This document shows, piece by piece, positions 2,177-63,325 of a stretch of DNA of 64,000 bases. A program made the translations under genes and the position numbers. Position 1 is the stretch's first letter. The number at the start of each line of letters is the position of its first letter. The notes under the pieces are model-generated. The model saw only the letters and a program-made list of their open reading frames with translations. It did no database searches and was not told the origin of the DNA. Origin of the DNA: Escherichia coli (GTDB lineage: Bacteria > Pseudomonadota > Gammaproteobacteria > Enterobacterales > Enterobacteriaceae); NCBI RefSeq assembly GCF_003991155.1, contig NZ_CP031293.1. One strand, written 5' to 3'.

Positions 2177-2179
2177 TTT

Positions 2180-35582: not shown

Positions 35583-35676
35583 GGTGGTCATTCTGGTGGT
35601 CTTGACAATCTCGATTTTTTGTTTTAGCTTACCAATCAGCCAGTTAATGGCTACGGCGATCCCAGTCAGAGGAGCC
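35583..35676 (+). repeat. Island-end repeat copy 1, ending in the tRNA-Asn 3'-terminal 15-mer
   Basis: ~94 bp near-identical to 48837..48930 and to the reverse complement of 63231..63325; ends CCAGTCAGAGGAGCC, matching the tRNA-Asn acceptor/T-arm 3' end. Confidence 0.8.
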
Positions 35677-35682
35677 CAATTT

Positions 35683-35714
35683 CTGAAAAACCCGCTTTTA
35701 TAGCGGGCTTTTCG
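35683..35714 (-). terminator. Terminator downstream of cbl
   Basis: GCCCGCT-ATAAAAG-AGCGGGT hairpin followed by T-run on the minus strand. Confidence 0.5.
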
Positions 35715-36665
35715 CTATATCTGATAATCAATTTCCTCTTCACTGTTTTCCATCACCTGGCGCTTGATATCCTCAACTGACAGTCCTGCATTACAAAGTT
35801 CCAGAAAGCGCCAGACATAGTTACGTTGAAGTTGCCCTCGCTTCAGTCCCAACCAGACAGTATTAGCATCGAAAAGATGCCTCGTATCCAGACGGATTAA
35901 ATTCTTTTCCTCTTGTTCACCACTGGATTGTTCGGCAACTAATCCGATCCCCAGCCCAAGAGCAACATAGGTTTTAATGACATCAGAATCCTGCGCACTT
36001 AATACAATATCTGCCAGCAAACCTTTGCGGGCAAATGCGTCATCAATACGTGAGCGCCCCGTAATCCCCTGTCGGTAAGTAATTAACGGCCACTTCGCTA
36101 TTGATTCCAGCGTCAACGGTGTAATTTGCGTCAAGGGATGATCGAGTGGAACAAGCAAACTATGGTGCCAACGAAACCACGGGAAGGCGACGAGCTGCGG
36201 GTCATTACTCAAACGCTCGCTGGCGATACCAATATCAGCTTCGCCATTTTGCAACAACGTCGCAATTTCCTGTGGTGTACCCTGGATTAGCTCCAGCCGA
36301 ACCTCCGGGAAAAGTTCGCGAAAAGCTTTAATGACCTCAGGCAAGCTATAACGTGCCTGAGTATGCGTCGTTGCAATAGTGAGAACGCCAGACGTATCGT
36401 TGGTAAACAGGTCTGCAAGCCGACGAACATTACTGGCTTCATTCAGAATACGTTCTGCAATGACCAGTAATGCTTTGCCCGGTTCAGTCATGCCCAGCAG
36501 TCGCTTACCTCGTCGAACAAATATTTCGATGCCAAGTTCATCCTCCAGTTCCCGAATATGACGGCTAACGCCTGACTGTGAGGTAAAAAGCATATTCGCA
36601 ACCTCTGTCAGGTTGTAATCCTGACGTGCAGCCTCGCGGATTATCTTTAGTTGTTGGAAATTCAC
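35715..36665 (-). CDS. cbl: LysR-family regulator Cbl (CysB-like)
   Basis: 316 aa; sequence recognised as E. coli Cbl (MNFQQLKIIREAARQDYNLTEVANMLFTSQSGVSRHIRELE...). Confidence 0.9.
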   Translation of the reverse strand: MNFQQLKIIREAARQDYNLTEVANMLFTSQSGVSRHIRELEDELGIEIFVRRGKRLLGMTEPGKALLVIAERILNEASNVRRLADLFTNDTSGVLTIATTHTQARYSLPEVIKAFRELFPEVRLELIQGTPQEIATLLQNGEADIGIASERLSNDPQLVAFPWFRWHHSLLVPLDHPLTQITPLTLESIAKWPLITYRQGITGRSRIDDAFARKGLLADIVLSAQDSDVIKTYVALGLGIGLVAEQSSGEQEEKNLIRLDTRHLFDANTVWLGLKRGQLQRNYVWRFLELCNAGLSVEDIKRQVMENSEEEIDYQI

Positions 36666-36766
36666 GGTAAACTCCGGGCAGTTCAGATATCCCGTTATTG
36701 TTAAAGTCTAATGCCCGGCATAACAAATAATAAAAACCCGCATCTTATTCCATCCCGATATAACGC

Positions 36767-37684
36767 TTAGCTCACCAATTGCCACTGCCTTTTTTCCATC
36801 ACTGGAGAATTCATCACTGACATTAACAACTCTTTCACTGCTTGCGCCTGTGGTGATAAGTTCGCTCTGGCGGGTAAATTTAATGACAAAGAGAGACTCA
36901 TGGAAGGAGTGGTAATGCGTGACATCCAACCATTTACTGCGCCACATAACGAACGCGCGGCCGATTCGGGTAATACTGCAACGCCCATGCCGCTGGCAAT
37001 CGCTGCGGTAAGCGTGGCAATAGACTCAATTTCACCAATGACTTTTGCCGTGAGTCGCCGTAGGGAAAAAGCCTCATCAACACGAAGTCTAATAGCACTG
37101 TAATCACTTGGGAGAAAAAGGTTCATTTGCGCAATAGCATTAACATCAACGCTTTGCCCCGGGCAATCTTGAGTTCCTACCAGAAAAAGATCTTCTTTCA
37201 GTAAAGCCTGACTGGATACACCAGCCACAGGGGAATGCTCATAAATCACCGCCATATCGAGTTGGTGATTTATCAGTTTTTCGTTAAGTACTGCACCGCT
37301 ATTTTCATGAAGATAAATAACGACCTCCGGGAATTCAGCGCGAACCGCCTGTAATAAGGGCATGGTGATGGATGACGCAGCGGTTCCTGGCGCAAAGCCA
37401 ATCGAGACTTGCCCCGATAATGCCTGACCAACGTTATGCACCGCCAGTTGGGCCTGCTCACACTGACGTAAAATGGCCCGCGCATGGGTATAGAGAATTT
37501 TTCCGGCGTCAGTTGGCGTAACACCCCGTTTTGTGCGAATCAAAAGTTGTTGATTTAACTCACCTTCCAGTGTGGCAACCTGCTGACTGAGCGCTGGTTG
37601 TGCGATATGCAATACTTCAGCAGCCTGGGTCAGGCTACCAATATCTACAATTTTTACGAAGTATTTCAGGCGTCTGAAGTTCAT
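36767..37684 (-). CDS. nac: LysR-family nitrogen assimilation control protein Nac
   Basis: Start MNFRRLKYFVKIVDIGSLTQAAEVLHIAQPALSQQ at 37684 (305 aa); recognised as Nac. Confidence 0.9.
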   Translation of the reverse strand: MNFRRLKYFVKIVDIGSLTQAAEVLHIAQPALSQQVATLEGELNQQLLIRTKRGVTPTDAGKILYTHARAILRQCEQAQLAVHNVGQALSGQVSIGFAPGTAASSITMPLLQAVRAEFPEVVIYLHENSGAVLNEKLINHQLDMAVIYEHSPVAGVSSQALLKEDLFLVGTQDCPGQSVDVNAIAQMNLFLPSDYSAIRLRVDEAFSLRRLTAKVIGEIESIATLTAAIASGMGVAVLPESAARSLCGAVNGWMSRITTPSMSLSLSLNLPARANLSPQAQAVKELLMSVMNSPVMEKRQWQLVS

Positions 37685-37738
37685 GTTGCCTCCGGTTTTT
37701 AAGAATCGGCCCAAGTGCCGCCATTACTTACAACCAGA

Positions 37739-37754
37739 TTGCAAGATGCTTGCC
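37739..37754 (-). promoter_or_regulatory. sigma54 (-24/-12) promoter for nac
   Basis: Minus-strand TGGCAAGCATCTTGCA matches TGGCAC-N5-TTGCA with correct GG-to-GC spacing, ~55 nt upstream of the nac start. Confidence 0.6.
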
Positions 37755-37870
37755 AGTTTTATTTTGGCGTTGATGTACAAGCTAACCAACTGTCAAATAA
37801 GAGATTATGATAGTTTTGTCACTCGATCTTTTTATTAGAACTCGCGTTCTCTGCCCCAAGACATAAAGGT

Positions 37871-37887
37871 ATGCACCACGATGGTTC
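37871..37887. promoter_or_regulatory. Putative NtrC enhancer half-palindrome upstream of nac
   Basis: TGCACCACGATGGTTCA resembles the TGCACC-N5-GGTGCA NtrC site consensus. Confidence 0.3.
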
Positions 37888-38008
37888 ATTACCAAAAAGA
37901 TTGAAAGCTCACCATTTTGTCGAAATTGGCAGCAAACAAACAAAAAAATGCATTTCACCCTTTGACATCACCATGCACTGCCATTAATATGCGCCCCGTT
38001 CACACGAT

Positions 38009-38084
38009 TCCTCTGTAGTTCAGTCGGTAGAACGGCGGACTGTTAATCCGTATGTCACTGGTTCGAGTCCAGTCAGAGGAGCCA
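38009..38084 (+). tRNA. asnV: tRNA-Asn (anticodon GTT)
   Basis: 76 nt TCCTCTGTAGTTCAGTCGGTAGAACGGCGGACTGTTAATCCGTATGTCACTGGTTCGAGTCCAGTCAGAGGAGCCA; cloverleaf consistent, anticodon GTT at 38042..38044; gene symbol inferred from position next to nac. Confidence 0.9.
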
Positions 38085-38250
38085 AATTTTAGTCTTGAGA
38101 CATCTCTATAAGTCTCAGGATAGTTAAAAAACAAGAACTTATCTTTACCCGGTTGTCTCGCAAGAGGCTGCTGGGTTTCTTGACATCCATAGTTTTTAGG
38201 GGCCTAATCAGGGGCCTCACGGTTCGGTGAGCAAACGGAGCCCCCACGCT

Positions 38251-39513
38251 ATGGCATTAACAGACACCGCTATTCGCAAGACTAAACCCTCTGACAAACC
38301 CTTCAAAATGACGGACAGTTCTGGACTGTACCTGTTGATCAAACCTAACGGCTCAAAACTCTGGTATATGAAGTACCGCATCGACGGCAAAGAGAAGAAA
38401 CTGGCCTTTGGCCCCTACCCGGAGATCTCCCTGTTGCAGGCTCGCCGCCTGCGCGAAACAGCACGCAATAACATTCATGCAGGCGTCGATCCGGCTGCGG
38501 TGAAGCAAACCGAGAAACAGAAGAGGAAAAACGGGCAGACGTTCAGCCAGATCGCCATCAACTGGCATAGCGAGCATAAACGCTGGTCTGAGCATTACGC
38601 GAAAACGGTTATGCGCAGGCTGGAAATGTACGTTTTCCCGGATATCGGGGATCGCCTTATCGAGGAGATCGAAACGGAGGATTTGTTATTCACGTTGCGC
38701 AAGGTAGAGAGTAAAGGCTTTCTGGAAATCACCGCGCGGCTGAAAAACTACGTCACCGATATCATGCACTACGCGATGAAAAAGAAACTGCTCAAAGCGA
38801 ACCCGGCGCTGTATCTGGACGGTGAGTTTGCCGCGCCAGAAACCAGTCACTACCCGGCCCTGTCGCTGGACAAATTGCCTGAGCTTTTAACCCGGACGGA
38901 TAGCTACTGCGGCAGGCTGCTGACAAAATACGCGCTTAAGCTGTCGCTGATTTTTTTTGTGCGCTCCAGCGAACTACGCTTTGCGCGCTGGAGTGAGATC
39001 GACTGGCAGCAGAAGTTATGGATAATCCCGGAAGAGCGCGAACAGATCGAAAACGTGCGCTTCTCTTACCGGGGGTCGAAAATGAAAATCCAGCACATTG
39101 TGCCGCTGTCGGATCAGGCGATTGCGATACTGAAACAGATCGAGGCCCTCTCCGGGCATCTGGCCTTTATTTTTCCCGGCGAATACGACCAGGACAAGTG
39201 CATGAGCGACAACACCGTCAACAAGGCGCTGCGCGTGATGGGTTACGACACCAAAAAGGATATCTGCGGGCATGGCTTCCGGGCAATGGCCTGTAGTGCG
39301 CTGAGCGAATCGGGATTATGGAGCAAAGAAGCCATTGAAAAGCAGATGAGCCACCAGGAAAGAAACAGCGTCCGTGCTGCCTATATTCACAAGGCTGAAT
39401 ATCTGGAGGAACGGATCGAGATGATGCAGTGGTGGTCAGATTATCTTGATGCAAACAGTGACGGGTATGTCTCGGCTTACCAGTATGCCCGCCGCCTAAA
39501 ACAGGCGTCGTAA
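38251..39513 (+). CDS. int: P4-like tyrosine integrase
   Basis: ORF 38227..39513; probable start MALTDTAIRKTKP at 38251; phage-integrase family features; lies directly 3' of the tRNA. Confidence 0.85.
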   Translation: MALTDTAIRKTKPSDKPFKMTDSSGLYLLIKPNGSKLWYMKYRIDGKEKKLAFGPYPEISLLQARRLRETARNNIHAGVDPAAVKQTEKQKRKNGQTFSQIAINWHSEHKRWSEHYAKTVMRRLEMYVFPDIGDRLIEEIETEDLLFTLRKVESKGFLEITARLKNYVTDIMHYAMKKKLLKANPALYLDGEFAAPETSHYPALSLDKLPELLTRTDSYCGRLLTKYALKLSLIFFVRSSELRFARWSEIDWQQKLWIIPEEREQIENVRFSYRGSKMKIQHIVPLSDQAIAILKQIEALSGHLAFIFPGEYDQDKCMSDNTVNKALRVMGYDTKKDICGHGFRAMACSALSESGLWSKEAIEKQMSHQERNSVRAAYIHKAEYLEERIEMMQWWSDYLDANSDGYVSAYQYARRLKQAS

Positions 39514-39636
39514 GTTAACAAAGCATCAGAGGGGGAAAAGGTATATTCCCCCTTTGTGCGTTTCAAATGTCGATGCTGACTGTAGCTTTTAAACTAAATT
39601 ACTGGATAAAAAGTAGCTTTTAAGCTACTATCTTTT

Positions 39637-39954
39637 ATGAAAACGATAAAGACCTACATAACTGCCGACGGGCGAGATCTGTATGCAGAGTTTTTTAAAG
39701 GGTTACGCGACCCCATCGCGAAGGCAAAGATCGCTTCCCGGATCAACCGGATGGCTTCGGACAATTTTGGCGACCATAAGCCCTGCCGGGAAGGTGTCTG
39801 GGAACTCAGGATAGATCAAGGGGCTGGGTATCGGGTTTATTACAGCCTGGTGGATGGAGAAGTCGTCCTGTTGATTCTGGCTGGCGACAAGCGTACGCAG
39901 GATGCAGATATAGATGAGGCTATTCGCTGCCTCAAAGACTATTTGAAGAGGTGA
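39637..39954 (+). CDS. RelE/ParE-superfamily toxin, HigB-like
   Basis: 105 aa; 3 nt before the antitoxin-like gene; toxin-first order typical of HigBA. Confidence 0.6.
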   Translation: MKTIKTYITADGRDLYAEFFKGLRDPIAKAKIASRINRMASDNFGDHKPCREGVWELRIDQGAGYRVYYSLVDGEVVLLILAGDKRTQDADIDEAIRCLKDYLKR

Positions 39955-39957
39955 TGT

Positions 39958-40266
39958 ATGGCGAAAGAACGTTTATATGATGATGTCATGGTGGAAGCGC
40001 TCCGGGAAGATCCTGCTTTTGCTCAGGCCTATCTGCATCAGGCATTTCTGGATATGGATGAAGATGGCGGTCAGGAAGCTTTTTTACTCGCGTTACGCCA
40101 TGTTGTTGAAGCGCGGGGAGGAATGGCGACGGTTGCCCAGAAAGCCGGTGTATCGCGTGAATCACTGTACCGCACGCTCTCCCCGACCGGCAACCCGACA
40201 CTGAAAACACTCCGCAGCGTCGTCCACGCCGCAGGTTTTCAGTTCTCTGCGCTGGCAAGTGCCTGA
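39958..40266 (+). CDS. HigA-like antitoxin (HTH)
   Basis: 102 aa; sequence resembles addiction-module antidote proteins (GVSRESLYRTLSPTGNPTLKTL helix-turn-helix region). Confidence 0.6.
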   Translation: MAKERLYDDVMVEALREDPAFAQAYLHQAFLDMDEDGGQEAFLLALRHVVEARGGMATVAQKAGVSRESLYRTLSPTGNPTLKTLRSVVHAAGFQFSALASA

Positions 40267-40388
40267 GTAGTTTTACATTTTGCAGCGATAATATAAATTG
40301 TAAATCATAATCCCTCCGTTGCTCTGTTCTGAGCAACGGATTACTTTGCATATTATCTGCTTTGCTAATCCATCAATTTTTAATTACC

Positions 40389-40682
40389 TTACATGGAAGC
40401 AACATACTCCATTAAATTATCTAATAAAAAATCAACCTTACTTATACCTTCATTTACATTATCGGCATAGATAAGTTCTACGAGCTTCATCCAACTTAAA
40501 TTGGAACGTACATTGTATTGTAAAAGGAGCCACTCTCTAAATCCCTCTAACATTTTACCGTCAAAGGAAAAATCCATCCCTAGTATAAAAGCCACAGTGT
40601 TTTCATAGTTATTTTCAAGTAGATACATATCGATATGCTTCTTAAAAAAAACAATTTTTTTTAGGAGGATATTTTTATTCAT
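40389..40682 (-). CDS. Putative immunity protein for orphan rhs toxin
   Basis: 97 aa, start 3 nt after the toxin stop, AT-rich. Confidence 0.5.
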   Translation of the reverse strand: MNKNILLKKIVFFKKHIDMYLLENNYENTVAFILGMDFSFDGKMLEGFREWLLLQYNVRSNLSWMKLVELIYADNVNEGISKVDFLLDNLMEYVASM

Positions 40683-40684
40683 AA

Positions 40685-41400
40685 TTAAAATCCAAAATTG
40701 ATTGCATCAGGATATTGCCATAACTCTTTATATTCTTGTAATGGTAAACCGTCTGAGCCAGTAAAGGCATCATAAACCCGACCATCTTTTACTACAACGT
40801 CGTGATATGCCCAACCGGGATTCGTGCCTCTGTATTTACCTAATGAAGGAGCTCCGAAATCAGGTCTAATTCTTGCAATATCACCACCGATTTTCTTTTG
40901 TACCCACAATGCAAAATCTTCACAACCATTCCAGTTCTCAGAATTTTTAATATCCGCAGCCTTCCATACACAATCAGCGTTAAGGCCTAATGGATCAATC
41001 CAATTTAACGGATCTTTGACGTAACTGTATGGATTAATACCTCCCAACACCCCGGTTGGATCTGCCGAAATATACTGCGCAGTATCAGGATCATAGTACC
41101 GGAACCGGTTATAGTACAGTCCTGATTCGGCATCTTCATACTGCCCCGGAAAACGCAGGCGGCAGTCAGGTGCATCATCCCTGTTCCTGCCTTCTTCCCG
41201 GCCCCAGAGCTGTTGTTTTCCCCGCCAGACAATGGTGCCGCCCTCGGTCAGCAGTTCCTGGACACGGCCGACCGTATCCGTCACCGCGTAATGCAACAAG
41301 CCTTTCTCATAACGCGCCAGCGGTGTAAAACTTCCCGGTTCGTATATCCAGCGGATGGCGTTTTCATCATCTGGCTTGCCGTCCTGGCTGACCGGAATTT
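40685..41400 (-). CDS. Orphan rhs C-terminal cassette with Cys/His/Asp-containing toxin tip
   Basis: ORF 40685..41299, rhs-core similarity extends to ~41400; DPLGL motif then a unique ~95 aa C-terminus. Confidence 0.7.
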
Positions 41401-41442
41401 CTTGGTTAGATGACCGTCAGTTAAATGGATATTATCATTCCA

Positions 41443-41784
41443 TTAAAAATCGGAATGATCCATATATTCTATATGCTCATCAGAAAGTCCATCTGGATAT
41501 AACTCTCTTGGATAATCACTATCTAAAATTGCTAGGAAGTTATTTATAGTATTTTCCAATGCCTCATCTACTGTTTTTCCCCAGCCAATAGCACCTTCGG
41601 GACAATCATCAAATTTCCGTTTAATCATTACATTTGTAATCCCCATGTAACTCCCATCCTGAGACTCTCGTATTTTTATTTTTACTTTTGCGCTAGGGAT
41701 AACACCAAACATCCAAATTACAAACTCGGCTTCAACTTTCTCTACTTTAGATACACTGCGTATTTTCATTTGATGCCAGCCCAT
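41443..41784 (-). CDS. Putative immunity protein for Rhs2 toxin
   Basis: ATG start MGWHQMKIRSV at 41784 with AGAGGA RBS, 11 nt after the Rhs2 stop. Confidence 0.5.
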   Translation of the reverse strand: MGWHQMKIRSVSKVEKVEAEFVIWMFGVIPSAKVKIKIRESQDGSYMGITNVMIKRKFDDCPEGAIGWGKTVDEALENTINNFLAILDSDYPRELYPDGLSDEHIEYMDHSDF

Positions 41785-41794
41785 ATCTTTTCCT

Positions 41795-44700
41795 CTATAA
41801 ACGACCAAAAGAGACAATTTCCCCTGTATCTACCGCAACATCAATATATCTTCCGTTCTTTCTATATCTCCACACATTTTCAGTATAACCAGAAACTTTG
41901 GTTGGTTTTATTCTTCTCAAGTTCTCAGAAAAAACCTTAGCTTTATTTAGATATTGCTCTACCGTTTCTGCACCAACTTCACGACCATGTTTTCTGAAGT
42001 GCTCCAGTAATGACTCTGCCGGAGTATCCCAACTTCCTTTACTCCATAGTTTTTTACAATTTACTTCTTGCAGGAATGCAAATAATGCCGATAAACCTAA
42101 AGGGTCAATATAACTAAATGGGTTCTGTACATATGAATATGGATTTAATCCCCCAAGTAACCCAATGGGATCTGCCGAAATATACTGCGCCGTATCAGGA
42201 TCATAGTACCTGAACCGGTTATAGTACAGTCCTGATTCCGTATCTTCGTACTGCCCCGGAAAACGCAGGCGGCAGTCAGGCGCATCATCCTTGTTTCTGC
42301 CTTCTTCCCGGCCCCAAAGTTGCTGTTTTCCCCGCCAGACAATCGTGCCGTCTTCGGTCAGCAACTCCTGGACACGACCGACCGTATCCGTCACCGCGTA
42401 ATGCAGCAAGCCTTTCTCATAACGTGCCAGCGGTGTAAAACTTCCCGGTTCATATATCCAGCGAATGGCATTTTCATATTCTGGTTTGCCATCAGTACCA
42501 ACAGGAATTTCTTCGGTTAACTGATCGCCATTCCAGTGGAAATCCATTCCGGACTTATCACGGTTGGTACACCGTTTGCTGATGCGCCTGCCAAACGGGT
42601 CGTATTTATACTCCCAGCGTTCCCCCTCCGGCGTTTCAAGCCCGGTAAGCTGACTTCTGGCATCCCAGCGATAGCGCCATTCGAGCGGACGATAGCCGCC
42701 TTTATCGACCAGTTTCTCCACCAGGCGACCATTAGCATCGTACGTCCAGGTAATATTGTGCTCATTCACCACCCGGACAAATTTTCCCTCTTCCGGCTTT
42801 CCTGTGTCCGGGTTGATGCGGTGTGTCTGATGCCGCCAGCCTTTGTGCTCTCTGGAAACAACTCTTCCATGCCGCAACTGCTGGTGTGTCTCGCTTTCCA
42901 GCACCTCATTTACCCATGTCTGGCGGCGGGCAATATTCAGGTTTTTGTCATAAGTGAACAGTTCCTCACACAGCGGAAACTCCCGGGAATCGCCCGTCCA
43001 GGTGGCATGGCTTACCTGGTCGTTAACCGTCATATTGTTGAAGGCTGATCCCCGCAGCGAGTCTGATATTACCGTCAGGTTGTACGCCTTGTCATACAGC
43101 CACTGGCGCTCCAGGCTTTTGTTCCGTTCGTACGGCCCGGCCTGGTGGTCCCCGGCATTCTGCTTCGCTGGCATCCCTGTGCGCGTGTATGCCAGCGTCT
43201 GGTAAAACCCGGCCTCGCTCCGCCTGGACGTTTCCAGGCCGCGCAGGTCGTGCTCAAATGTCAGCGGGGCATGGTCCGCTATCTGCCAGGATGCCAGATG
43301 CCCCATCAGGTTTCGGGTAAAGCGTTCTGTGATACCTGCTGTGGTGCGCTGTGTGACCGTATCCAGGTCAGGGTCGTAACGGTATTCTGTGCGCCTGCCG
43401 TTCAGCGTTTCGGCAACAATCTGGTTTGCATCGTTATATTCAAATGTAACGGTGGCATCGTCATTCTTCGCTTCCACCAGACGACGCTGCGTGTCGTAAC
43501 GAAATGTGGTGACACTCAGAGTTCGGTCACTGTTGCCCTGTGTGACTTCCTCGTCCGTCACCTGGTCATTCACGTTGTAGCGGCGGTTAAGGTGAGTGCC
43601 GTCCGGGAAGCTGGTGCGAATACAACGCCCGACGGCATCGTAGGTGTAGTTCAGCGTGCGTCCGGTGAAGTCTGTTTCTGCTACAAGCTGCCCGGCTTTA
43701 TCATATTTAAGACGGTAGCGCTCGCCTTCGGCGTTGGTAATTTCGGTCAGGCGGGTCAGTTTATCGTAGCGACACGCCAGCCGCTCGCCGTCAGGACGCA
43801 CCAGAGCCGTGAGCAGATCGAATGCACCGTATTCGTAACGGGTGGTTTTGCCCTCGCCATCGGTAAAGCTTTCCGGTAGCTTTTCGCTGTTCTGGCGCAT
43901 CAGTTCCCGCACGCCGTCCGGGCGCTGGATTTCTTCCACGCAGCCCTGTGGCCCGGCGTGGATTTTGCTGTGACGAAACTGCGTGGTGAAGCCAAGTGGG
44001 TCTTTCACACTTAACAGTCGGCCCAGCATATCCTGTTCGGTCTGCGTGATGCCGCCGTCTGGCGCAACAGTCTCGCGCACCTGATGCAGGGCGTCATGAC
44101 TCCAGCACCAGGTGGCCCCGCCCGGCAGAATCCGTGCAAGCAAATCACCCTGTTCACTGTAGCTGAACTGCTGTTTCCGGCCCTGAGGGTCGATCAGGCT
44201 GATTATGCTGCCCCGATCATCATAGACCCATTGCCACGCCTGATTATCAGTTGTCGACAGCCGGGTTAACTGACCGGTATCATTATACTCGTAGAACAGG
44301 CCATAGCCGCCCGGCAGGGCAACCTGGATAACCTCACCTTCCCGGTTATAGCGGTACGCCGTGGTACGCCCCAGCGCATCGGTGCGTGACTGAAGCCGGG
44401 CATTATTCCAGACGGTAATTTCTTCCCGCCCCAGCGGATCGATACAGCGGGTGACCAGGCCGTCCTCGTTATACCAGTAACGGGTTTCGCCCCCTTCTGC
44501 ATCCAGGTAGGTGGTGCATTTTTCATCATCGTTATAGATAAAGCGGTCATCGAAGTAGCCTTCCGTTGACAGTGTGCTGACAGCGCGCCCCTGCGGATCA
44601 TAGCGGATATCCACACAGGTTTTGTCCGTATCCCGCCAGCGGGTCATAAAGCCTTCTGATGTGTACTCATGCCATAAATGCGAGAACTGGAAGGTATCGC

Positions 44701-45985: not shown

Positions 45986-45992
45986 CGTATTA

Positions 45993-47244
<1,252 letters not shown>

Positions 47245-48426: not shown

Positions 48427-48453
48427 TTTGGTACTGGATACAAAGGATAGATA

Positions 48454-49243: not shown

Positions 49244-57223
<7,980 letters not shown>

Positions 57224-57244
57224 TTTTCCGCTATAATTTCTTAA

Positions 57245-57273
57245 AGAGTGCTCCATTCGGGGCACTCTTTTTT
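57245..57273 (+). terminator. Rho-independent terminator after yeeJ
   Basis: AGAGTGCTCC-ATTC-GGGGCACTCT followed by TTTTT. Confidence 0.7.
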
Positions 57274-57483
57274 ACATTCCCTCTACAGAACTTGCCCTTC
57301 TCTCACAGAAAATGAATAAATAAAAATGCGATACCGCCAGATTCGCGTTCGGTGTGACTATGGTTGTATCCGGTGAGTACAGCTTTGATCCAAAGGCTGG
57401 CTTCTGTGATGATTAACCAGCCTCAGGGTATTGATGACACCACCGTTCATAACAGATCGGCATTACTTTGCATACGTACTGCT

Positions 57484-58536
57484 TCATATTCTCGCCAAAA
57501 CACTTTTTAATGCCTTTGCGAATTCATCCAGACTTATATTGTCAATTTTTTGCCCAACGACGACTGACTCCGAAACATCGGCCATTGCTGGCCATCGCGT
57601 TTTGTAATCAGCATAAATTGCAACAACGGGGGTATTATAGGCACTTGCCATATGTAATATTGAGGTGTCAGGAGTTATTGCGATATAAGCATCTTTTATG
57701 ATTGCTGCTGAACGTTTAATCGAGGGTGATAAGGATAAACGGTAGACATTATTATAACAATCCACTAACACCCTGGCTTTTTCTTCCCCTTTTGGTCCAT
57801 GAACGATCACTATTGGTATATCTGTTTCACTTTGAATTTTTTCTATTATATTTTCTGCAATCGATAATAAAAATGTACGTTCCTGCGAGCTACCTTCTAA
57901 ATTAAGCGCAATGTAAGATCCTAACGATCGCATTTCCTCGCGCACCTCATCGAGTACATCCTTACTTAGTGGCAATTCATATATTGGCCTGACTGCTGGA
58001 AAACCCGCCTCACGCATCATAAATGCCCATGTCATGGGCACAGGAGCCCGGAGATTCTGATCCATCCGGGACGCGCTCTTACACAAAGGGGAATAGCACT
58101 TCATGGTTAAACCAACAACCTGAAAATTCGTTTTTGCTTTCAACTGACTGATAAATATCATCGTTTTCAGGTTCTTTTTACGCATCGCCTCTATACAAAG
58201 ATCCGGCGTACCGTATTGCTGTGTTATGTTCTTCGCTAAATCTTTTATTTCTTTTAATGTTGCGTGATCCTGCATAGTCATTGTGACTAATGTTAATTTA
58301 GTCTGTTCAAGTTTGAGCGCGTTAAAGACTTCTAAATTAATTGTCGACGTAACAATTAAAAGATGCTTAATTTTATGCAATTCAAGCGCCCTAATAACTG
58401 GAAAGATGGCCATAGCATCGCCAATCTGATCGGGAATATGGATAACAACAAACTCTGTTTTTTCAATATTGAAATTAAAAGCTTTATAATCGTAGTAACT
58501 AAATGCAATACGTCTCAACAATGATGCTAAAAACAT
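57484..58536 (-). CDS. yeeL: Glycosyltransferase family 9 (heptosyltransferase-like) protein, YeeL
   Basis: ORF 57484..58599, probable start MFLASLLRRIAF at 58536; uninterrupted. Confidence 0.7.
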   Translation of the reverse strand: MFLASLLRRIAFSYYDYKAFNFNIEKTEFVVIHIPDQIGDAMAIFPVIRALELHKIKHLLIVTSTINLEVFNALKLEQTKLTLVTMTMQDHATLKEIKDLAKNITQQYGTPDLCIEAMRKKNLKTMIFISQLKAKTNFQVVGLTMKCYSPLCKSASRMDQNLRAPVPMTWAFMMREAGFPAVRPIYELPLSKDVLDEVREEMRSLGSYIALNLEGSSQERTFLLSIAENIIEKIQSETDIPIVIVHGPKGEEKARVLVDCYNNVYRLSLSPSIKRSAAIIKDAYIAITPDTSILHMASAYNTPVVAIYADYKTRWPAMADVSESVVVGQKIDNISLDEFAKALKSVLARI

Positions 58537-58850
58537 AACTAACCCCGCTTCCCTACTGGTTATAATGCAATGCAGTTTATCAGACTCATCAGGGCGCAAT
58601 TTTGTGCATATGCGGACTTTTATGTTTCATATCTCGAATCTGTGGATCCTCTGCTTAATCCTTAAACAACACCAGCAACTCCTGCGCTTTCATCTACCAT
58701 CGAATTTTTCATGTTGCCGTTAATCAGCCATAAAATCATTTGCAGATGCGCTCTGTCGAGGTAGTCTCATAAGGTTCGTTTATAGATCGACGGCAATGTG
58801 AGTTACCTTTTCCATACTAATTATAAAAAGACAGTACAAACAGGATCATT

Positions 58851-60167
58851 ATGGACTCCACGCTCATCTCCACTCGTCCCGATGAAGGGACGCTTTCGTT
58901 AAGTCGCGCCCGACGAGCTGCGTTAGGCAGTTTCGCTGGTGCCGTCGTCGACTGGTATGATTTTTTACTCTATGGCATTACCGCCGCACTGGTGTTTAAT
59001 CGCGAGTTTTTCCCGCAAGTAAGCCCGGCTATGGGAACGCTCGCCGCATTTGCCACCTTTGGTGTCGGATTCCTGTTCCGTCCGCTCGGCGGTGTCATTT
59101 TCGGTCACTTTGGCGACCGACTGGGACGTAAGCGCATGTTAATGCTGACCGTCTGGATGATGGGTATCGCGACAGCCTTGATTGGTATTCTTCCTTCATT
59201 CTCGACTATTGGGTGGTGGGCCCCCATTTTACTGGTGACGCTGCGTGCCATTCAGGGATTTGCCGTCGGCGGCGAATGGGGAGGCGCGGCGTTACTTTCC
59301 GTTGAAAGTGCACCGAAAAATAAAAAAGCCTTTTACAGTAGCGGTGTACAAGTTGGCTACGGAGTAGGTTTACTGCTTTCGACAGGACTGGTTTCATTGA
59401 TCAGTATGATGACGACTGACGAACAGTTTTTAAGCTGGGGCTGGCGGATTCCTTTCCTGTTTAGCATCGTACTGGTACTGGGGGCATTGTGGGTGCGTAA
59501 TGGCATGGAGGAGTCCGCGGAATTTGAACAACAGCAACATAATCAAGCGGCCGCGAAAAAACGCATCCCGGTTATCGAAGCACTATTACGACATCCCGGT
59601 GCTTTCCTGAAGATTATTGCGCTACGACTGTGCGAGTTGCTGACGATGTACATCGTTACCGCCTTTGCACTTAATTATTCAACCCAGAATATGGGGTTAC
59701 CGCGCGAACTTTTCCTTAATATTGGTTTGCTGGTCGGTGGATTAAGCTGCCTGACAATTCCCTGTTTTGCCTGGCTTGCCGATCGTTTTGGTCGCCGCAG
59801 GGTTTATATCACAGGCGCGTTGATCGGAACGTTGAGCGCATTTCCTTTCTTTATGGCGCTTGAAGCACAATCTATTTTCTGGATAGTTTTCTTCTCCATA
59901 ATGCTGGCAAACATTGCGCATGACATGGTGGTGTGCGTGCAACAACCGATGTTTACCGAAATGTTTGGTGCCAGTTATCGCTATAGTGGCGCTGGAGTCG
60001 GATATCAGGTTGCCAGTGTGGTTGGCGGTGGATTTACACCTTTTATTGCCGCTGCACTCATCACTTACTTTGCCGGGAACTGGCATAGCGTCGCTATTTA
60101 TTTGCTGGCTGGATGCCTGATTTCCGCAATGACCGCTTTGTTGATGAAAGACAATCAACGCGCTTAA
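58851..60167 (+). CDS. shiA: Shikimate transporter (MFS)
   Basis: 438 aa, 12-TM major facilitator; recognised as ShiA. Confidence 0.9.
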   Translation: MDSTLISTRPDEGTLSLSRARRAALGSFAGAVVDWYDFLLYGITAALVFNREFFPQVSPAMGTLAAFATFGVGFLFRPLGGVIFGHFGDRLGRKRMLMLTVWMMGIATALIGILPSFSTIGWWAPILLVTLRAIQGFAVGGEWGGAALLSVESAPKNKKAFYSSGVQVGYGVGLLLSTGLVSLISMMTTDEQFLSWGWRIPFLFSIVLVLGALWVRNGMEESAEFEQQQHNQAAAKKRIPVIEALLRHPGAFLKIIALRLCELLTMYIVTAFALNYSTQNMGLPRELFLNIGLLVGGLSCLTIPCFAWLADRFGRRRVYITGALIGTLSAFPFFMALEAQSIFWIVFFSIMLANIAHDMVVCVQQPMFTEMFGASYRYSGAGVGYQVASVVGGGFTPFIAAALITYFAGNWHSVAIYLLAGCLISAMTALLMKDNQRA

Positions 60168-60268
60168 TAGCCTGGCGAAGATCATCCGATCTTCGCCTTA
60201 CACTTTTGTTTCACATTCCTGTGACATACTATCGGAAGTGCGGTAATTGTATGGAACAGGAGACACAC

Positions 60269-61723
60269 ATGAATAATAAGGGCTCCGGTCTGACCCCAGC
60301 TCAGGCACTGGATAAACTCGACGCGCTGTATGAGCAATCTGTAGTCGCATTACGCAACGCCATTGGCAAATATATTAGAAGTGGCGAATTACCTGATGAA
60401 AACGCCCGCAAACAAGGTCTTTTTGTCTATCCATCACTGACCGTAACCTGGGACGGTAGCACAACCAATCCCCCCAAAACGCGCGCATTTGGTCGTTTTA
60501 CTCACGCAGGCAGCTACACCACCACGATTACTCGCCCTACTCTCTTTCGTTCGTATCTTAATGAACAACTTACGTTGCTGTATCAGGATTATGGTGCGCA
60601 TATCTCGGTGCAACCCTCGCAGCATGAAATCCCTTATCCTTATGTCATCGATGGCTCTGAATTGACACTTGATCGCTCAATGAGCGCTGGGTTAACTCGC
60701 TACTTCCCGACAACAGAACTGGCGCAAATTGGCGATGAAACTGCAGACGGCATTTATCATCCAACTGAATTCTCCCCGCTATCGCATTTTGATGCGCGCC
60801 GCGTCGATTTTTCCCTCGCGCGGTTGCGCCATTATACCGGTACGCCAGTTGAACATTTTCAGCCGTTCGTCTTGTTTACCAACTACACACGTTATGTGGA
60901 TGAATTCGTTCGTTGGGGATGCAGCCAGATCCTCGATCCTGATAGTCCCTACATTGCCCTTTCTTGTGCTGGCGGGAACTGGATCACCGCCGAAACCGAA
61001 GCGCCAGAAGAAGCCATTTCCGACCTTGCATGGAAAAAACACCAGATGCCAGCATGGCATTTAATTACCGCCGATGGTCAGGGTATTACTCTGGTGAATA
61101 TTGGCGTGGGACCGTCAAATGCTAAAACCATCTGCGATCATCTGGCGGTGCTACGCCCGGATGTCTGGTTGATGATTGGTCACTGTGGTGGCTTACGTGA
61201 AAGCCAGGCCATTGGAGATTATGTACTTGCACACGCTTATTTACGCGATGACCACGTTCTTGATGCGGTACTGCCGCCCGATATTCCTATTCCGAGCATT
61301 GCTGAAGTGCAACGTGCGCTTTATGACGCTACCAAGTTAGTCAGCGGCAGGCCCGGAGAGGAAGTTAAACAGAGGCTACGTACTGGCACTGTGGTAACCA
61401 CAGATGACAGGAACTGGGAATTACGTTACTCAGCTTCTGCACTTCGTTTTAACTTAAGCCGGGCCGTAGCAATTGATATGGAAAGTGCAACCATTGCCGC
61501 GCAAGGATATCGTTTCCGCGTGCCATACGGGACACTACTGTGTGTTTCAGATAAACCGTTGCATGGTGAGATTAAACTTCCCGGTCAGGCTAACCGTTTT
61601 TATGAAGGCGCTATTTCCGAACACCTGCAAATTGGCATTCGGGCGATCGATTTGCTGCGCGCAGAAGGCGACCGACTGCATTCACGTAAATTACGAACCT
61701 TTAATGAACCGCCGTTCCGGTAA
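60269..61723 (+). CDS. amn: AMP nucleosidase
   Basis: Start MNNKGSGLTPAQALDKLDALYEQ at 60269 with AGGAG RBS (484 aa); recognised as Amn. Confidence 0.9.
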   Translation: MNNKGSGLTPAQALDKLDALYEQSVVALRNAIGKYIRSGELPDENARKQGLFVYPSLTVTWDGSTTNPPKTRAFGRFTHAGSYTTTITRPTLFRSYLNEQLTLLYQDYGAHISVQPSQHEIPYPYVIDGSELTLDRSMSAGLTRYFPTTELAQIGDETADGIYHPTEFSPLSHFDARRVDFSLARLRHYTGTPVEHFQPFVLFTNYTRYVDEFVRWGCSQILDPDSPYIALSCAGGNWITAETEAPEEAISDLAWKKHQMPAWHLITADGQGITLVNIGVGPSNAKTICDHLAVLRPDVWLMIGHCGGLRESQAIGDYVLAHAYLRDDHVLDAVLPPDIPIPSIAEVQRALYDATKLVSGRPGEEVKQRLRTGTVVTTDDRNWELRYSASALRFNLSRAVAIDMESATIAAQGYRFRVPYGTLLCVSDKPLHGEIKLPGQANRFYEGAISEHLQIGIRAIDLLRAEGDRLHSRKLRTFNEPPFR

Positions 61724-61782
61724 TAAGTTCTGTTCCTTTTTATCAGGAATAGATGTGAAGGATTTAGTAAGTCATCCAGCAA

Positions 61783-61808
61783 ATAGCCTGCAATAAAGCA
61801 GGCTGTTT
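61783..61808 (+). terminator. Rho-independent terminator after amn
   Basis: AGCCTGC-AATAAA-GCAGGCT hairpin followed by T-rich tail. Confidence 0.6.
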
Positions 61809-62064
61809 GCTTCCTGGGGCGGATACGAGTTTTATTATAGCCTTAATGATTTCCATATATTAAAAGCAAGTATGCTTTCAAAACACAATTATAAAAAAAT
61901 CCGCCAACGACATTAGTTTTTATGAGATTAAATATAATATTATGGCTTTAGAATATTTTTATTTCTAATAGACGAGATTTTTCCTGTTATGATATAATAT
62001 GCCGAATTAACACATGTTAACGATTTACCAGTAATGTAAATAAATTTTCGAGGAGATCATTCCA

Positions 62065-62781
62065 GTGGGACGTAAATGGGCCAATATTGTTGCTAAAAAA
62101 ACGGCTAAAGACGGTGCAACGTCTAAAATTTATGCAAAATTCGGTGTAGAAATCTATGCTGCTGCTAAACAAGGTGAACCCGATCCAGAATTAAACACAT
62201 CTTTAAAATTCGTTATTGAACGAGCAAAGCAGGCACAAGTTCCAAAGCATGTTATTGATAAAGCAATTGATAAAGCCAAAGGCGGCGGAGATGAAACGTT
62301 CGTGCAGGGCCGTTATGAAGGCTTTGGTCCTAATGGCTCAATGATTATCGCCGAGACCTTGACTTCAAATGTTAACCGTACGATTGCTAACGTTCGCACA
62401 ATTTTCAATAAAAAAGGCGGCAATATCGGAGCGGCAGGTTCTGTCAGCTATATGTTTGACAATACGGGTGTGATTGTATTTAAAGGAACAGACCCTGACC
62501 ATATTTTTGAAATTTTACTTGAAGCTGAAGTTGATGTTCGTGATGTGACTGAAGAAGAAGGTAATATTGTTATTTATACTGAACCTACTGACCTTCATAA
62601 AGGAATCGCGGCTCTAAAAGCAGCTGGAATCACTGAGTTCTCAACAACAGAATTAGAAATGATTGCTCAATCTGAAGTTGAGCTTTCCCCAGAAGATTTA
62701 GAAATCTTTGAAGGGCTTGTTGATGCCCTTGAAGATGACGACGATGTTCAAAAAGTTTATCATAACGTCGCAAATCTCTAA
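62065..62781 (+). CDS. yeeN: YebC/PmpR-family transcriptional regulator YeeN
   Basis: 238 aa; GTG start with GAGGAG RBS; recognised as YeeN. Confidence 0.85.
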
Positions 62782-62793
62782 TTATATTTTAAA

Positions 62794-62823
62794 GAAATCT
62801 GTCTTTATGGCAGATTTCTTTAA
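62794..62823 (+). terminator. Rho-independent terminator after yeeN
   Basis: AGAAATCTG-loop-CAGATTTCT followed by TTTAAT. Confidence 0.6.
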
Positions 62824-62839
62824 TCTCATATAATTCTTA

Positions 62840-63130
62840 TAAAGAATATAATATCCAGCTCGTCATATTGATTATAAAACCCACGCTCCCAGAGAAATAA
62901 TATTTATTAAAATTCCAGGCCTTCTTTTTCTGATTACAGAAGGCAAAGTGGCAATTACGTATAGTTTCCCGATAAAGACGTGACAGCAACATCCCGCATA
63001 AGGCATTTTTCTCTTTATCTTTGTACGGTGCTTCATGGAACAGAGTTTTTGACCTTGCGAATCGTGATGTCTGTTGGGGGGCAATTTGCTCACTGAAGCG
63101 TGAGACTCGATTAAGCACACGAAACACAGA
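62840..63130 (-). pseudogene. Decayed integrase 5' remnant next to the tRNA-flank sequence
   Basis: Reverse complement of 62990..63228 resembles the asnV-to-int leader and the first int codons (ttcagtgagcaaattgcccccca / acagacatcacgattcgcaaggtc vs ttcggtgagcaaacggagccccca / acagacaccgctattcgcaagact); frame broken. Confidence 0.4.
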
Positions 63131-63230
63131 AATCAAAAAACCCGGTCACTTTTTTACAAGGTAACCGGGTAAAAATGATTTTATTTTTTAACTGTCTTGA
63201 GACTCATAGAGATGTCTCAAAACTAAAATT

Positions 63231-63325
63231 TGGCTCCTCTGACTGGGATCGCCGTAGCCTTTAACAGGCTGATTGATAAGCTAAAACAAAAAATCGAGTT
63301 TGTCAAGACCACCAGACTGACCACC
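63231..63325 (-). repeat. Island-end repeat copy 3 with truncated tRNA-Asn 3' end (pseudo-tRNA / attR)
   Basis: Reverse complement matches copies 1 and 2; 63231..63246 is the tRNA 3' 16-mer; it is followed on the minus strand by the same flank that follows asnV (aattttagt[c/t]ttgagacatctc). Confidence 0.8.

Follow-up and report, generated by a model that had tools for sequence, protein, structure and literature searches.

Recombination between identical genes at scattered sites, such as rrn operons, IS elements or tRNA genes, gives rise to chromosomal rearrangements. The rearrangement described here, found in a lineage of Escherichia coli with two members published as ST457, shares with these cases breakpoints in identical repeats, the presence of all reciprocal junctions and the absence of sequence loss. 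It differs in that its repeats are very short (76 nt), unless integrase modules took part. These tRNA-Asn repeats are also targets of site-specific recombination, so that two mechanisms compete.

The locus lies in a known recombination hotspot, and similar events at these tRNA genes have already been published. HPI and pks islands are not tied to a single asn tRNA gene but can attach at any of several (PMC8209727). The three islands of the ST457 lineage resemble them in their tRNA-Asn, the adjacent P4-type integrase and the right-end repeat of the tRNA 3' end, and the last bases of their conserved arm before the core (GGCGATC) are those of the HPI right end (PMC2801613 Table 1). Their cargo, however, consists of a T6SS cluster, Rhs toxins and toxin-antitoxin genes instead of siderophore or polyketide genes, and whereas for HPI and pks the issue is the choice of insertion site, the feature here is reshuffled core segments.

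In pks-positive B2 E. coli, the asnW-asnU-asnV region with yeeO, cbl and nac is inverted (Auvray et al. 2021, PMC8209727). As in the ST457 lineage, that event concerns the same four tRNA-Asn genes and small core modules, has its breakpoints at tRNA genes, involves a P4-type integrase island and is lineage-specific. There, however, 4.3 kb between tRNA genes of opposite orientation were inverted, whereas in the ST457 lineage a segment moved among three same-direction tRNA genes with its orientation kept, and a 45-kb island travels along or flanks it. In the integration hotspot of Enterobacter hormaechei, asn tRNA genes are separated by islands and by 'genomic modules' (EhGM3-5), EhGM3 comprising one regulator of LysR type and one for nitrogen assimilation, and EhGM5 a MATE transporter (Paauw et al. 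2010, PMC2801613). Its 17-bp att core is the same, and its circles of an island plus the adjacent regulator module are the intermediate that we propose for the ST457 lineage. There, transient circles were detected by PCR and co-transfer was inferred, with no fixed relocation to another tRNA shown; in the ST457 lineage the relocated state is fixed, but no intermediate was seen.

Gene order and island ends in the window

The window, the whole stretch of 64,000 nt analysed here, has the order [T6SS island]-R1-cbl-nac-tRNA-Asn-[integrase/Rhs island]-R2-yeeJ-yeeL-shiA-amn-yeeN-R3, R1 to R3 being repeats. In K-12 the order is mtfA-asnT-yeeJ-yeeL-shiA-amn-yeeN-asnW(-)-yeeO(-)-asnU-cbl-nac-asnV-ldtA. 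A sequence-only reading had given the K-12 order correctly, as the K-12 map confirmed. Its view that the window departs from this order is borne out by the maps of the window lineage and K-12, and the three att-like repeats that it placed at the segment boundaries are real and lie exactly there. The absence of yeeO that it reported holds for the window but not for the genome: in every matching genome, yeeO adjoins asnW about 17.4 kb beyond the window end. The lineage has lost none of the core genes yeeO, cbl, nac, ldtA and yeeJ to yeeN. Gene positions below were taken from the RefSeq annotation of P19_598, which is 5 SNPs from the window.

1-35577, plus strand: island 1 (genomic island of T6SS/VgrG/Rhs type), the 35.6 kb at its right
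35578-35676, plus: R1, attR of island 1; arm 35578-35661 and core CCAGTCAGAGGAGCC (35662-35676), the tRNA-Asn 3' end
35677-38008, minus: cbl-nac module with native flanks; asnU-type downstream flank, cbl, nac, and asnV-type upstream region/promoter (37685-38008)
35715-36665, minus: cbl
36767-37684, minus: nac
38009-38084, plus: intact tRNA-Asn(GUU), the single tRNA-Asn in the window (ARAGORN); upstream flank of K-12 asnV type (nac side), downstream island 2, elsewhere found at asnT
38085-48830, plus: island 2
38251-39513, plus: P4-type integrase of island 2
39637-39954: relE/parE
39958-40266: antitoxin
40685-41296, minus: orphan Rhs tip
41795-45883, minus: Rhs
45995-47252: IS3 copy; a hypothetical gene lies between it and PAAR
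48454-48717: PAAR
48831-48928, plus: R2, attR of island 2; arm 48831-48914 and core CCAGTCAGAGGAGC (48915-48928)
48929-63232, plus: yeeJ-yeeL-shiA-amn-yeeN module in K-12 orientation, ending in asnW-type downstream flank
49244-57223, plus: yeeJ-like
57484-58536, minus: yeeL-like
58851-60167: shiA
60269-61723: amn
62065-62781: yeeN
63233-63331, minus: R3, attR of island 3; core 63233-63246 and arm 63247-63331
63332-64000, plus: start of island 3, radical-SAM gene from 63497

Each of the three islands adjoins an intact asn tRNA gene, whose 3' end meets the left end of the island. The two tRNAs concerned in the rearrangement (at islands 1 and 2) each have an intact integrase gene as neighbour. 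The island 2 integrase adjoins tRNA-Asn in the same reading direction; its 420 aa match NCBIfam NF007246 (PRK09692, integrase domain) over the full length (E 4.7e-75), with 252.7 bits, under the curated cut-off of 434, and RefSeq names it tyrosine-type recombinase / arm-type DNA-binding integrase. The left end of island 1 (mtfA-tRNA-Asn-integrase-relE'-IS3) is located about 10 kb left of the window. Past the window, island 3 continues with a degenerate fourth arm, Rhs fragments, IS3, an integrase pseudogene and asnW(-), followed by yeeO(-), a hybrid tRNA-Asn and ldtA. Judged by left end, integrase and right-end repeat, the islands appear to fit the tRNA-Asn-integrating P4-type integrase class (HPI / pks / ICEKp type). 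The T6SS island measures about 45 kb. Of 5,426 genomes, just 28 have this version of it; after these, the closest match is the common E. coli T6SS cluster by yafT/ykfM (85%). Island 2 was found at 100% identity in strain CS6L, directly between mtfA-asnT and yeeJ.

The three repeats (35578-35700 and 48831-48953 on the plus strand, 63224-63331 on the minus strand) are 85-95% identical over 107-123 nt, far above chance. They are the right-end junctions (attR) of the islands, at the other island end from the intact tRNA-Asn genes, and consist of a conserved arm of about 85 nt, the last 14-17 nt of tRNA-Asn and then K-12 downstream flank. The tRNA 3'-end direct repeat (17-bp attO CCAGTCAGAGGAGCCAA, published as the att core common to the HPI/ICE family; PMC2801613 Table 1) spans 15 nt in R1, 14 nt in R2 and at least 17 nt in R3. 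Comparison with K-12 identified the sequence after R1 as the asnU downstream flank/terminator leading into cbl, that after R2 as the asnT downstream flank leading into yeeJ, and the flank at R3 as that of asnW; the intact asnW is located about 18 kb right of R3, outside the window.

Exchanged upstream partners of the tRNA-Asn genes

When the sequences on either side of the four tRNA genes and the three attR sites were compared with K-12, every switch of genomic context mapped to a tRNA-Asn gene. The mtfA side, upstream of asnT in K-12, leads into island 1 and the asnU downstream flank (cbl); the nac side, upstream of asnV, leads into island 2 and the asnT downstream flank (yeeJ); the yeeO side, upstream of asnU, leads into the asnV downstream flank (ldtA). 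The fourth tRNA-Asn, just outside the window, is accordingly a hybrid with an asnU flank upstream and an asnV flank downstream, followed by ldtA. Compared with the K-12 order, there has been a cyclic swap of upstream partners among asnT, asnU and asnV, which share one direction. That it was the upstream partner of intact tRNA-Asn genes that was exchanged, and not the att-like repeats, is proved by the reciprocal hybrid junction yeeO-(asnU upstream)-tRNA-(asnV downstream)-ldtA. Recombination among repeated tRNA-Asn/island sequences, as put forward in the sequence-only reading, is an explanation of the right kind, but the three att-like repeats, which kept their native downstream flanks, were not its exchange points. 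All reciprocal junctions (mtfA-asn, nac-asn and yeeO-asn-ldtA) were found, and they fit a reciprocal three-way swap. The four tRNA-Asn genes, known landing sites for virulence islands (HPI, pks), also act as joints that permute core-gene blocks within a species. The tRNA-Asn copies were identical in all eight compared, four from K-12 and four from the lineage. A length of 76-80 nt is a short substrate for RecA.

The rearrangement might instead have been driven by IS-IS recombination or adjacent deletion at three IS3 copies, which lie left of the window, at 45995-47252 and in island 3. The copies are 99.9-100% identical to one another and all lack matching target-site duplications, and the gene bordering on each is truncated (relE', a DUF2169 fragment, an Rhs fragment), so IS-mediated deletions have occurred; in strain 980-2, the T6SS core was removed by IS3. 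The context switches relative to K-12, however, map to the tRNA genes and not to IS3 ends, CS6L with its K-12 order already has the IS3 copy of island 2, flanked as in the window, and neither inversion nor deletion between IS3 copies can turn one order into the other. The junction anatomy largely refutes this explanation, which we regard as very improbable.

Distribution among E. coli and other genera

Distribution and polarity within E. coli could be observed directly in a sample of 5,426 complete E. coli genomes. About 30 of these, from many laboratories and including two published as ST457, have the order of the window in common; the junction of island end, R1 and cbl was present in 30, and the reciprocal yeeO-asn-ldtA junction in 34, 29 of them at 99.9% identity or more to the lineage. 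The K-12-type junctions yeeO-asnU-cbl and nac-asnV-ldtA occurred in 5,179 (95%) and 4,664 genomes, respectively, and the phylogroup F reference strain IAI39 has the K-12 order.

Mis-assembly across repeated tRNA/att sequences, the other suggestion of the sequence-only reading, could draw on the repeats of 76-1,822 bp at the junctions. A 25-kb stretch over two junctions, however, is a single 100% match in at least 17 complete genomes from different countries and laboratories, and all junctions recur in 28-30 independent complete genomes; one reference-guided scaffold behind all these assemblies is implausible given their different sources. Since the same order is present in about 30 genomes from many laboratories, it is not a chimera, and we attach practically no probability to this explanation. 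The rearrangement is real and fixed in one E. coli lineage. ST457 is an emerging multidrug-resistant lineage and offers a concrete strain background for comparing RecA and island integrase in the reshuffling of core genes. The gene order from asnT to asnV should not be assumed in HPI/pks site typing or in K-12-based scaffolding.

The yeeO-asn-ldtA junction was also found in four other natural genomes; the three of these inspected each contain just three tRNA-Asn genes and lack cbl-nac in the vicinity. Recombination between asnU and asnV thus occurs independently. From ten genomes, nac is missing altogether. In the window lineage, cbl and nac are 97-98% identical to those of other E. coli (2-3% apart), as are neighbouring core genes, and thus look native.

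The lineage order is that of Citrobacter, Pseudocitrobacter, Enterobacter and other genera, and it probably re-creates an ancestral arrangement. Nothing might have moved at all if the older order had been kept, or imported from an unsampled Escherichia lineage, as a backbone mtfA-asn-cbl-nac-asn-shiA/amn-asn(-)-yeeO-asn-ldtA, with three of its four tRNA-Asn genes then simply receiving islands 1, 2 and 3 by integration in place. Order and orientation of this backbone are identical to those in Pseudocitrobacter faecalis, and on this basis ordinary integration accounts for each attR flank. The cbl-asn-mtfA junction occurs in 32 of 58 informative species from at least 15 genera and cbl-asn-yeeO only in Escherichia loci, and nac, cbl and the left-flank core genes of the lineage are at least about 1.9-2.1% away from every other genome of the collection. 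However, the K-12 order is present in four other species-level Escherichia loci as well as in IAI39 and 95% of E. coli, and an island-free mtfA-asn-cbl junction was found in no genome of the E. coli collection. Lineage Nac is 97-98% identical to Escherichia proteins and about 85% to those of Citrobacter, cbl and nac are no more divergent than neighbouring genes, and retention requires a polymorphism older than the species. We therefore hold this explanation to be improbable, if less so than one based on IS3.

Proposed path and catalyst

The best explanation, to which we give about an even chance, is a real rearrangement in which the asnU-asnV block moved to asnT by general homologous recombination. 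Two 76-nt tRNA-Asn genes of identical sequence would have recombined and released the asnU-asnV interval (T6SS island, attR, cbl-nac and one tRNA; 48,067 bp) as a loop, and the 48-kb block would have been re-inserted at asnT. Alternatively, a tandem duplication resolved via different tRNA copies may have led to the same product. Candidate substrates are the tRNA genes, which are identical, and the tRNA-integrase-relE modules of islands 1 and 2, which are nearly so over 1.8 kb. The lineage would then be a fixed natural example of two core regulators, cbl and nac, that reached another tRNA in an island-sized block. Neither presumed precursor, the K-12 order with the T6SS island at asnU or a tandem of islands 1 and 2 at asnT, occurred in the genome collection, and we therefore infer the path, as we do the order of events, the prior place of island 1 and RecA instead of an integrase as catalyst. 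With perfect identity over about 80-100 nt around them, the crossovers have no defined position relative to the integrase core site, and the sequence by itself is compatible with RecA as well as with integrase.

The main rival is the same three-way exchange catalysed by one or more P4-type island integrases, which is possible, though we lean against it. In one version, island 1 was excised too far with asnV as surrogate right-hand site, took cbl-nac with it and re-integrated at asnT. In the other, islands 1 and 2 stood in tandem at asnT, and the attP-like junction between them (attR arm, core and integrase arm) captured a 2.4-kb cbl-nac-tRNA circle with the tRNA as attB; this canonical attP x attB reaction yields precisely the sequence that is observed. 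The breakpoints are without exception tRNA-Asn genes, whose final 14-17 nt make up the att core shared with the HPI/ICE family, and an intact integrase gene stands beside each of the two tRNAs involved. HPI encodes an asn-tRNA integrase, and HPI yersiniabactin genes were present upstream of yeeJ in all three natural cbl-nac deletion strains inspected, the HPI integrase end lying outside the stretches examined. The E. hormaechei circles of an asn-tRNA island and a LysR/nac module with the 17-bp att site (PMC2801613) are compatible with this rival. As PCR products, however, they fit either integrase or RecA, and the tandem precursor of islands 1 and 2 was not found in the genome collection. Furthermore, the first step in both versions joins sites without the full arm set (attL x attB or attB x attB), a reaction that tyrosine integrases of this type are not known to carry out. 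Mobilisation of the core regulators cbl-nac by the T6SS island integrase, through over-long excision or mini-circle capture between tandem islands, seems rather unlikely. If true, it would make chromosomal genes between paralogous tRNA genes passengers of genomic islands, and would account for genus-to-genus differences in tRNA-Asn-bounded module order across Enterobacteriaceae.

Homologous exchange as catalyst is favoured by another observation, made on the left-end tRNA-integrase-relE modules of islands 1 and 2. These modules of 1,822 bp are identical over the first 886 bp, and 30 of their 32 mismatches fall in one 323-bp patch. The patch marks a gene-conversion mosaic in the integrase genes, and homologous exchange between both modules has therefore occurred; this shows such exchange to be active at this locus and counts against the integrase rival. 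The allele of the 323-bp patch was found only in genomes with the T6SS island.

Gene order and partner swap at the tRNA-Asn genes

The gene order in the window was confirmed to differ from that of E. coli K-12, and the K-12 order given in the sequence-only reading proved correct on the K-12 map. Gene positions follow the RefSeq annotation of E. coli P19_598 (NZ_CP067241.1, 2968092-3032091), which is 5 SNPs apart from the window.

Features of the window (RefSeq annotation of P19_598; the only tRNA-Asn found by ARAGORN and Rfam)
1 to about 35.5 kb: T6SS/VgrG/Rhs island (island 1)
35578-35700, plus strand: repeat R1
35715-36665, minus strand: cbl
36767-37684, minus strand: nac
38009-38084, plus strand: tRNA-Asn(GUU)
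38251-39513: tyrosine integrase of island 2 (integrase 2)
after the integrase, in island 2: relE/parE-antitoxin pair, Rhs genes, IS3, PAAR gene
48831-48953, plus strand: repeat R2
49244-57223: yeeJ-like gene
between yeeJ-like and yeeN: yeeL-like gene, shiA, amn
62065-62781: yeeN
63224-63331, minus strand: repeat R3
right of yeeN, at the window end: first gene of island 3

The whole locus, read from the flanks in P19_598 and MRY15-117, runs serU - mtfA - tRNA-Asn - integrase 1 - relE' - IS3 - (T6SS island) - R1 - cbl - nac - tRNA-Asn - integrase 2 - (island 2) - R2 - yeeJ..yeeN - R3 - (island 3, about 18 kb) - integrase pseudogene - asnW(-) - yeeO(-) - tRNA-Asn - ldtA - cobTSU. The K-12 order is mtfA-asnT-yeeJ-yeeL-shiA-amn-yeeN-asnW(-)-yeeO(-)-asnU-cbl-nac-asnV-ldtA. 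The gene yeeO, first noted as absent, is indeed missing from the window but present in the genome, 17.4 kb past the window end. In the lineage, some 30 E. coli genomes with the rearranged order, the four tRNA-Asn copies are identical to the four of K-12. At 7,980 nt, against 7,020 nt in K-12, the yeeJ-like inverse autotransporter gene is longer by about 1 kb, and it carries 609-bp tandem Ig-domain repeats at 52260-53777; the yeeL homologue, a pseudogene in K-12, is intact.

The att-like repeats reported from the sequence are real and mark, in three copies, the right ends of islands. They measure 107-123 nt, share 85-95% pairwise identity and consist of a conserved arm of ~85 nt, with a doubled GGTGGTC motif and GGCGATC at its end, followed by a core, CCAGTCAGAGGAGC(C), made up of the final 14-17 nt of tRNA-Asn. 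The same core was published as the 17-bp att site of the HPI and of related islands that use asn tRNA genes (PMC2801613). Beyond it, R1 continues into the K-12 downstream flank of asnU, R2 into that of asnT and R3 into that of asnW; R1, R2 and R3 are therefore attR, the right-end junctions of three tRNA-Asn/P4-integrase-type islands. The integrase matched NCBIfam PRK09692 with an E value of 4.7e-75, at a score under the curated cut-off. Just after the tRNA, islands 1 and 2 start on the left with a sequence (38064-38134) about 90% identical to the asnW downstream flank (63181-63251), ordinary chromosomal DNA found in K-12 too; either this flank goes back to an old island or the island family took up asnW flank DNA in the past.

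The tRNA-Asn in the window has an asnV-type upstream side, towards nac, and is followed by island 2 and then the downstream flank of asnT. Beside mtfA, an asnT-type upstream side precedes island 1 and the downstream flank of asnU, and beside ldtA, an asnU-type upstream side, towards yeeO, is joined to an asnV-type downstream flank. The difference from K-12 is a cyclic three-way swap among three same-direction tRNA genes, equivalent to taking 48,067 bp (one tRNA, island 1, R1 and cbl-nac) out of the stretch between asnU and asnV and placing them at asnT. The reciprocal junction yeeO-asn-ldtA was predicted by the swap model in advance and then found. Island 2 belongs at asnT; strain CS6L has mtfA-asnT-island 2-yeeJ at 100% identity, with K-12 order elsewhere. 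A single-base difference upstream of asnT was uninformative as a crossover marker, the same base being present in CS6L. An IS3-driven rearrangement was also rejected: a comparison of all three IS3 copies for swapped target duplications in their flanks gave a lone 3-bp match, judged a chance match because CS6L has the same IS3 flanks in K-12 order.

Distribution among E. coli genomes

A chimeric assembly, the artefact considered in the sequence-only reading, is ruled out by the recurrence of the junctions across independent complete genomes of many countries. A 25-kb stretch over two junctions gave a single 100% match in at least 17 complete genomes, from Switzerland, Korea, the USA, Hong Kong, China, Thailand and elsewhere, and MRY15-117 from Japan has the rearranged order too, at 99.6% identity. 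Two lineage members, CREC-544 (PMC9860340) and AR13438 (PMC10100771), were published as ST457.

Junctions and island among 5,426 complete E. coli genomes
yeeO-asn-ldtA: 34 genomes, 29 of them at 99.9% identity or more to the lineage
island 1 end-R1-cbl: 30 genomes
T6SS island version of the window: 28 genomes
yeeO-asnU-cbl (K-12 type): 5,179 genomes
nac-asnV-ldtA (K-12 type): 4,664 genomes
mtfA-asn-cbl without island: 0 genomes

Given these counts and the K-12 gene order of IAI39, the phylogroup F reference strain, the rearranged order is rare and derived within E. coli. In a search of all 5,426 genomes, this version of the T6SS island was found at asnU or any other site in none beyond the same 28, which leaves no precursor arrangement to inspect.

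The genomic backgrounds were mosaic. In the left-flank core genes dgcQ-zinT, 28 rearranged genomes match CS6L, TL20 and CM192843.1 at 100% identity; none of these last three was among the 45 best right-flank matches. TL20 and CM192843.1 carry the K-12-type tRNA-cbl junction, the TL20 match taking in yeeO too. CS6L is 100% identical to the lineage on its left side (flank, mtfA, island 2, yeeJ-yeeN), and from yeeO rightward its alleles resemble those of K-12 and the K-12-order strains 94-3024 and MLI106K1; its nac is 99.8% identical to K-12 as against 97.0% to the lineage. With these alleles and a right flank unlike ST457, CS6L was rejected as a direct ancestor and is a recombinant instead. Lineage junctions and the lineage nac allele also occur in 980-2, which has the complete rearranged order and a T6SS core deleted by an IS3, and in UID2309220003, on left flanks just 98.2% identical to that of the lineage. 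The right flank of UID2309220003 reaches 98.4%, 980-2 falls outside the 45 best matches for the right flank, and strain 1517k is close to the lineage on that flank. Because left- and right-flank affinities disagree with junction content, the region appears to have been swapped between backgrounds through large recombination events, which are typical near the his/O-antigen region.

Outside the lineage, yeeO-asn-ldtA was present in four natural genomes (MEI3O-23, AH20K059, Esc20 and CNR20180903), where it apparently arose by asnU x asnV recombination. The three inspected (loci L007, L008 and L012) have three tRNA-Asn genes and carry HPI genes, and in all three cbl-nac was absent from the stretch covered near this junction; nac is missing in ten genomes of the 5,426. 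Recombination between asnU and asnV is thus a recurring event, which bears on the catalyst of the swap. SL112, another of the 34 genomes with the junction, was discarded as a tRNA-tRNA event: it kept four tRNA-Asn genes, and its cbl-nac deletion is internal to asnU-asnV.

Probably older order in other genera and possible routes of exchange

A Nac-anchored scan of species-representative genomes yielded 80 loci on which marker genes and tRNA-Asn were mapped, 58 species having a marker reachable beyond cbl. The lineage's junction, cbl-asn-mtfA, was found in 32 of these 58, from at least 15 genera; cbl-asn-yeeO in K-12 orientation occurred among them only in the four Escherichia loci. Three Citrobacter loci have the cbl-asn-yeeO adjacency with yeeO inverted, and Klebsiella and Raoultella have cbl-ldtA. 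Pseudocitrobacter faecalis (mtfA-asn-cbl-nac-asn-yeeL-shiA-amn-asn(-)-yeeO(-)-asn-ldtA-cobT-cobS) agrees with the lineage backbone in order and orientation. Almost all tRNA-Asn copies mapped were 100% identical, one Leclercia copy being at 99%. From the genus-level counts and the P. faecalis map, the K-12 order looks like an Escherichia novelty and the lineage like a return to the commoner, probably older order.

This match with the commoner, probably older order of other genera would also be expected if the old order had been retained or imported and the islands then integrated in place. We consider this improbable: the K-12 order is found in four other Escherichia species-level loci, in IAI39 and in 95% of E. 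coli, lineage Nac is 97-98% identical to Escherichia proteins as against about 85% to Citrobacter, and lineage cbl and nac are no more diverged than adjacent genes. A foreign origin of cbl-nac was rejected likewise, its alleles being unique to the lineage, yet shiA, amn and ldtA diverge at least as much.

Two further arrangements were noted in the scan. L015-L017, two "E. coli" records and E. whittamii, lack yeeN and have mtfA-tRNA-Asn inverted with respect to shiA-amn; in L015 and L016 the tRNA-Asn of the inverted mtfA leads into a yeeL-like gene. This is a further rearrangement of the neighbourhood, with at least one breakpoint away from tRNA-Asn; the two "E. coli" records, whose MtfA and CobT are about 90% identical to those of K-12, are possibly cryptic-clade Escherichia. 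L068, labelled Chryseobacterium sp. 18061, holds an enterobacterial mtfA-asn-cbl-nac-asn-amn locus (Nac 81% identity) and is probably mislabelled or contaminated.

For the swap itself, three routes each yield precisely the observed product. In route A, asnU x asnV recombination would loop out island 1 and cbl-nac as a 48-kb circle, which would go back in at asnT. Route B would be a tandem duplication from asnT to asnV followed by deletions via other tRNA copies. In route C, islands 1 and 2 would initially lie in tandem at asnT, and the attP-like junction between them would capture a 2.4-kb cbl-nac-tRNA circle. RecA and integrase are not separable by sequence, because every crossover lies within identical sequence. 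We favour homologous recombination over integrase catalysis, giving it about an even chance. A three-way exchange catalysed by the integrase seems rather doubtful, as the opening reaction would have to join sites without the full set of arms, and tyrosine integrases of this type are not known to do this.

Islands 1 and 2 begin on the left with modules (tRNA, integrase and start of relE; L002 8009-9830 versus window 37985-39806) that bear on homologous exchange. Over 1,822 bp, their first 886 bp are identical, and 30 of the 32 mismatches fall within one 323-bp patch of the integrase gene, about 9% divergent. The variant patch allele is restricted to genomes with the T6SS island, and no donor for the island 1 patch was found at the other loci compared or in other lineages. 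By this pattern, the modules are a gene-conversion mosaic, which means that homologous exchange between them has taken place. Modules so nearly identical are a good substrate for re-insertion.

The rearrangement is real, and events at these tRNA genes are already published: the asnW-asnU-asnV segment is inverted in pks-positive B2 strains (PMC8209727), and E. hormaechei has a modular 'integration hotspot' (PMC2801613). The E. hormaechei circles, which join an island to its adjacent regulator module (PMC2801613), equal the intermediate of route A and are compatible with either catalyst. No account of the cbl-nac/island relocation, or of the agreement with other genera, was found in the open-access full-text literature.

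Insertion sequences and island contents

Two ISEc1/ISAs1-type copies (29389-30655 and 32176-33441) are 97% identical, and Rhs core repeats lie in both orientations at 19.5-29.4 kb and 40.7-45.9 kb, the longest being 3.1 kb at 81% (20389-23475 versus 42200-45283). Both are extra rearrangement substrates within and between islands. Rfam gave a full-length match to the isrC sRNA at 46063-46185 (145 bits), in the 5' end of an IS3-family element (45995-47252) with three copies in the region. This match region had zero blastn similarity to the K-12 stretch compared, which holds the annotated isrC gene, and the family model apparently picks up IS-derived sequence.

Island 1 (window 1-35577 and about 10 kb leftward; L002 8033-50000) holds a complete second T6SS cluster on a tRNA-Asn island, with tssA-M, two hcp, vgrG, DUF2169 and PAAR-Rhs genes with orphan toxin/immunity cassettes. 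Its GC content reaches 61%, and its nearest relative, the common T6SS cluster adjoining yafT/ykfM, is only 85% identical. The last gene (33604-35448) encodes 614 aa with no NCBIfam match and is the only island 1 gene with relatives outside the 28 genomes, in 94-3024 and 13 others, where it ends at the same attR arm. It is a shortened relative of a gene that is annotated at 3.7 kb (about 1,240 aa) in 94-3024 and bears the name YobI-family P-loop NTPase in certain other records. In 94-3024, the one inspected, the gene lies within a tandem island array at asnU, beside AAA ATPase and HNH genes.

Island 3 at asnW (63497-64000 onward; L001 31589-49433) is likewise a tandem array, in which a fourth, degenerate attR arm, some 6.7 kb past the end of the window, separates two parts. 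Genes for a radical-SAM protein, a DUF6375 protein and a hypothetical protein of 1,352 aa lie in the outer part; the inner one holds fragments of Rhs genes, an IS3, a truncated DUF2169 gene and the integrase pseudogene.
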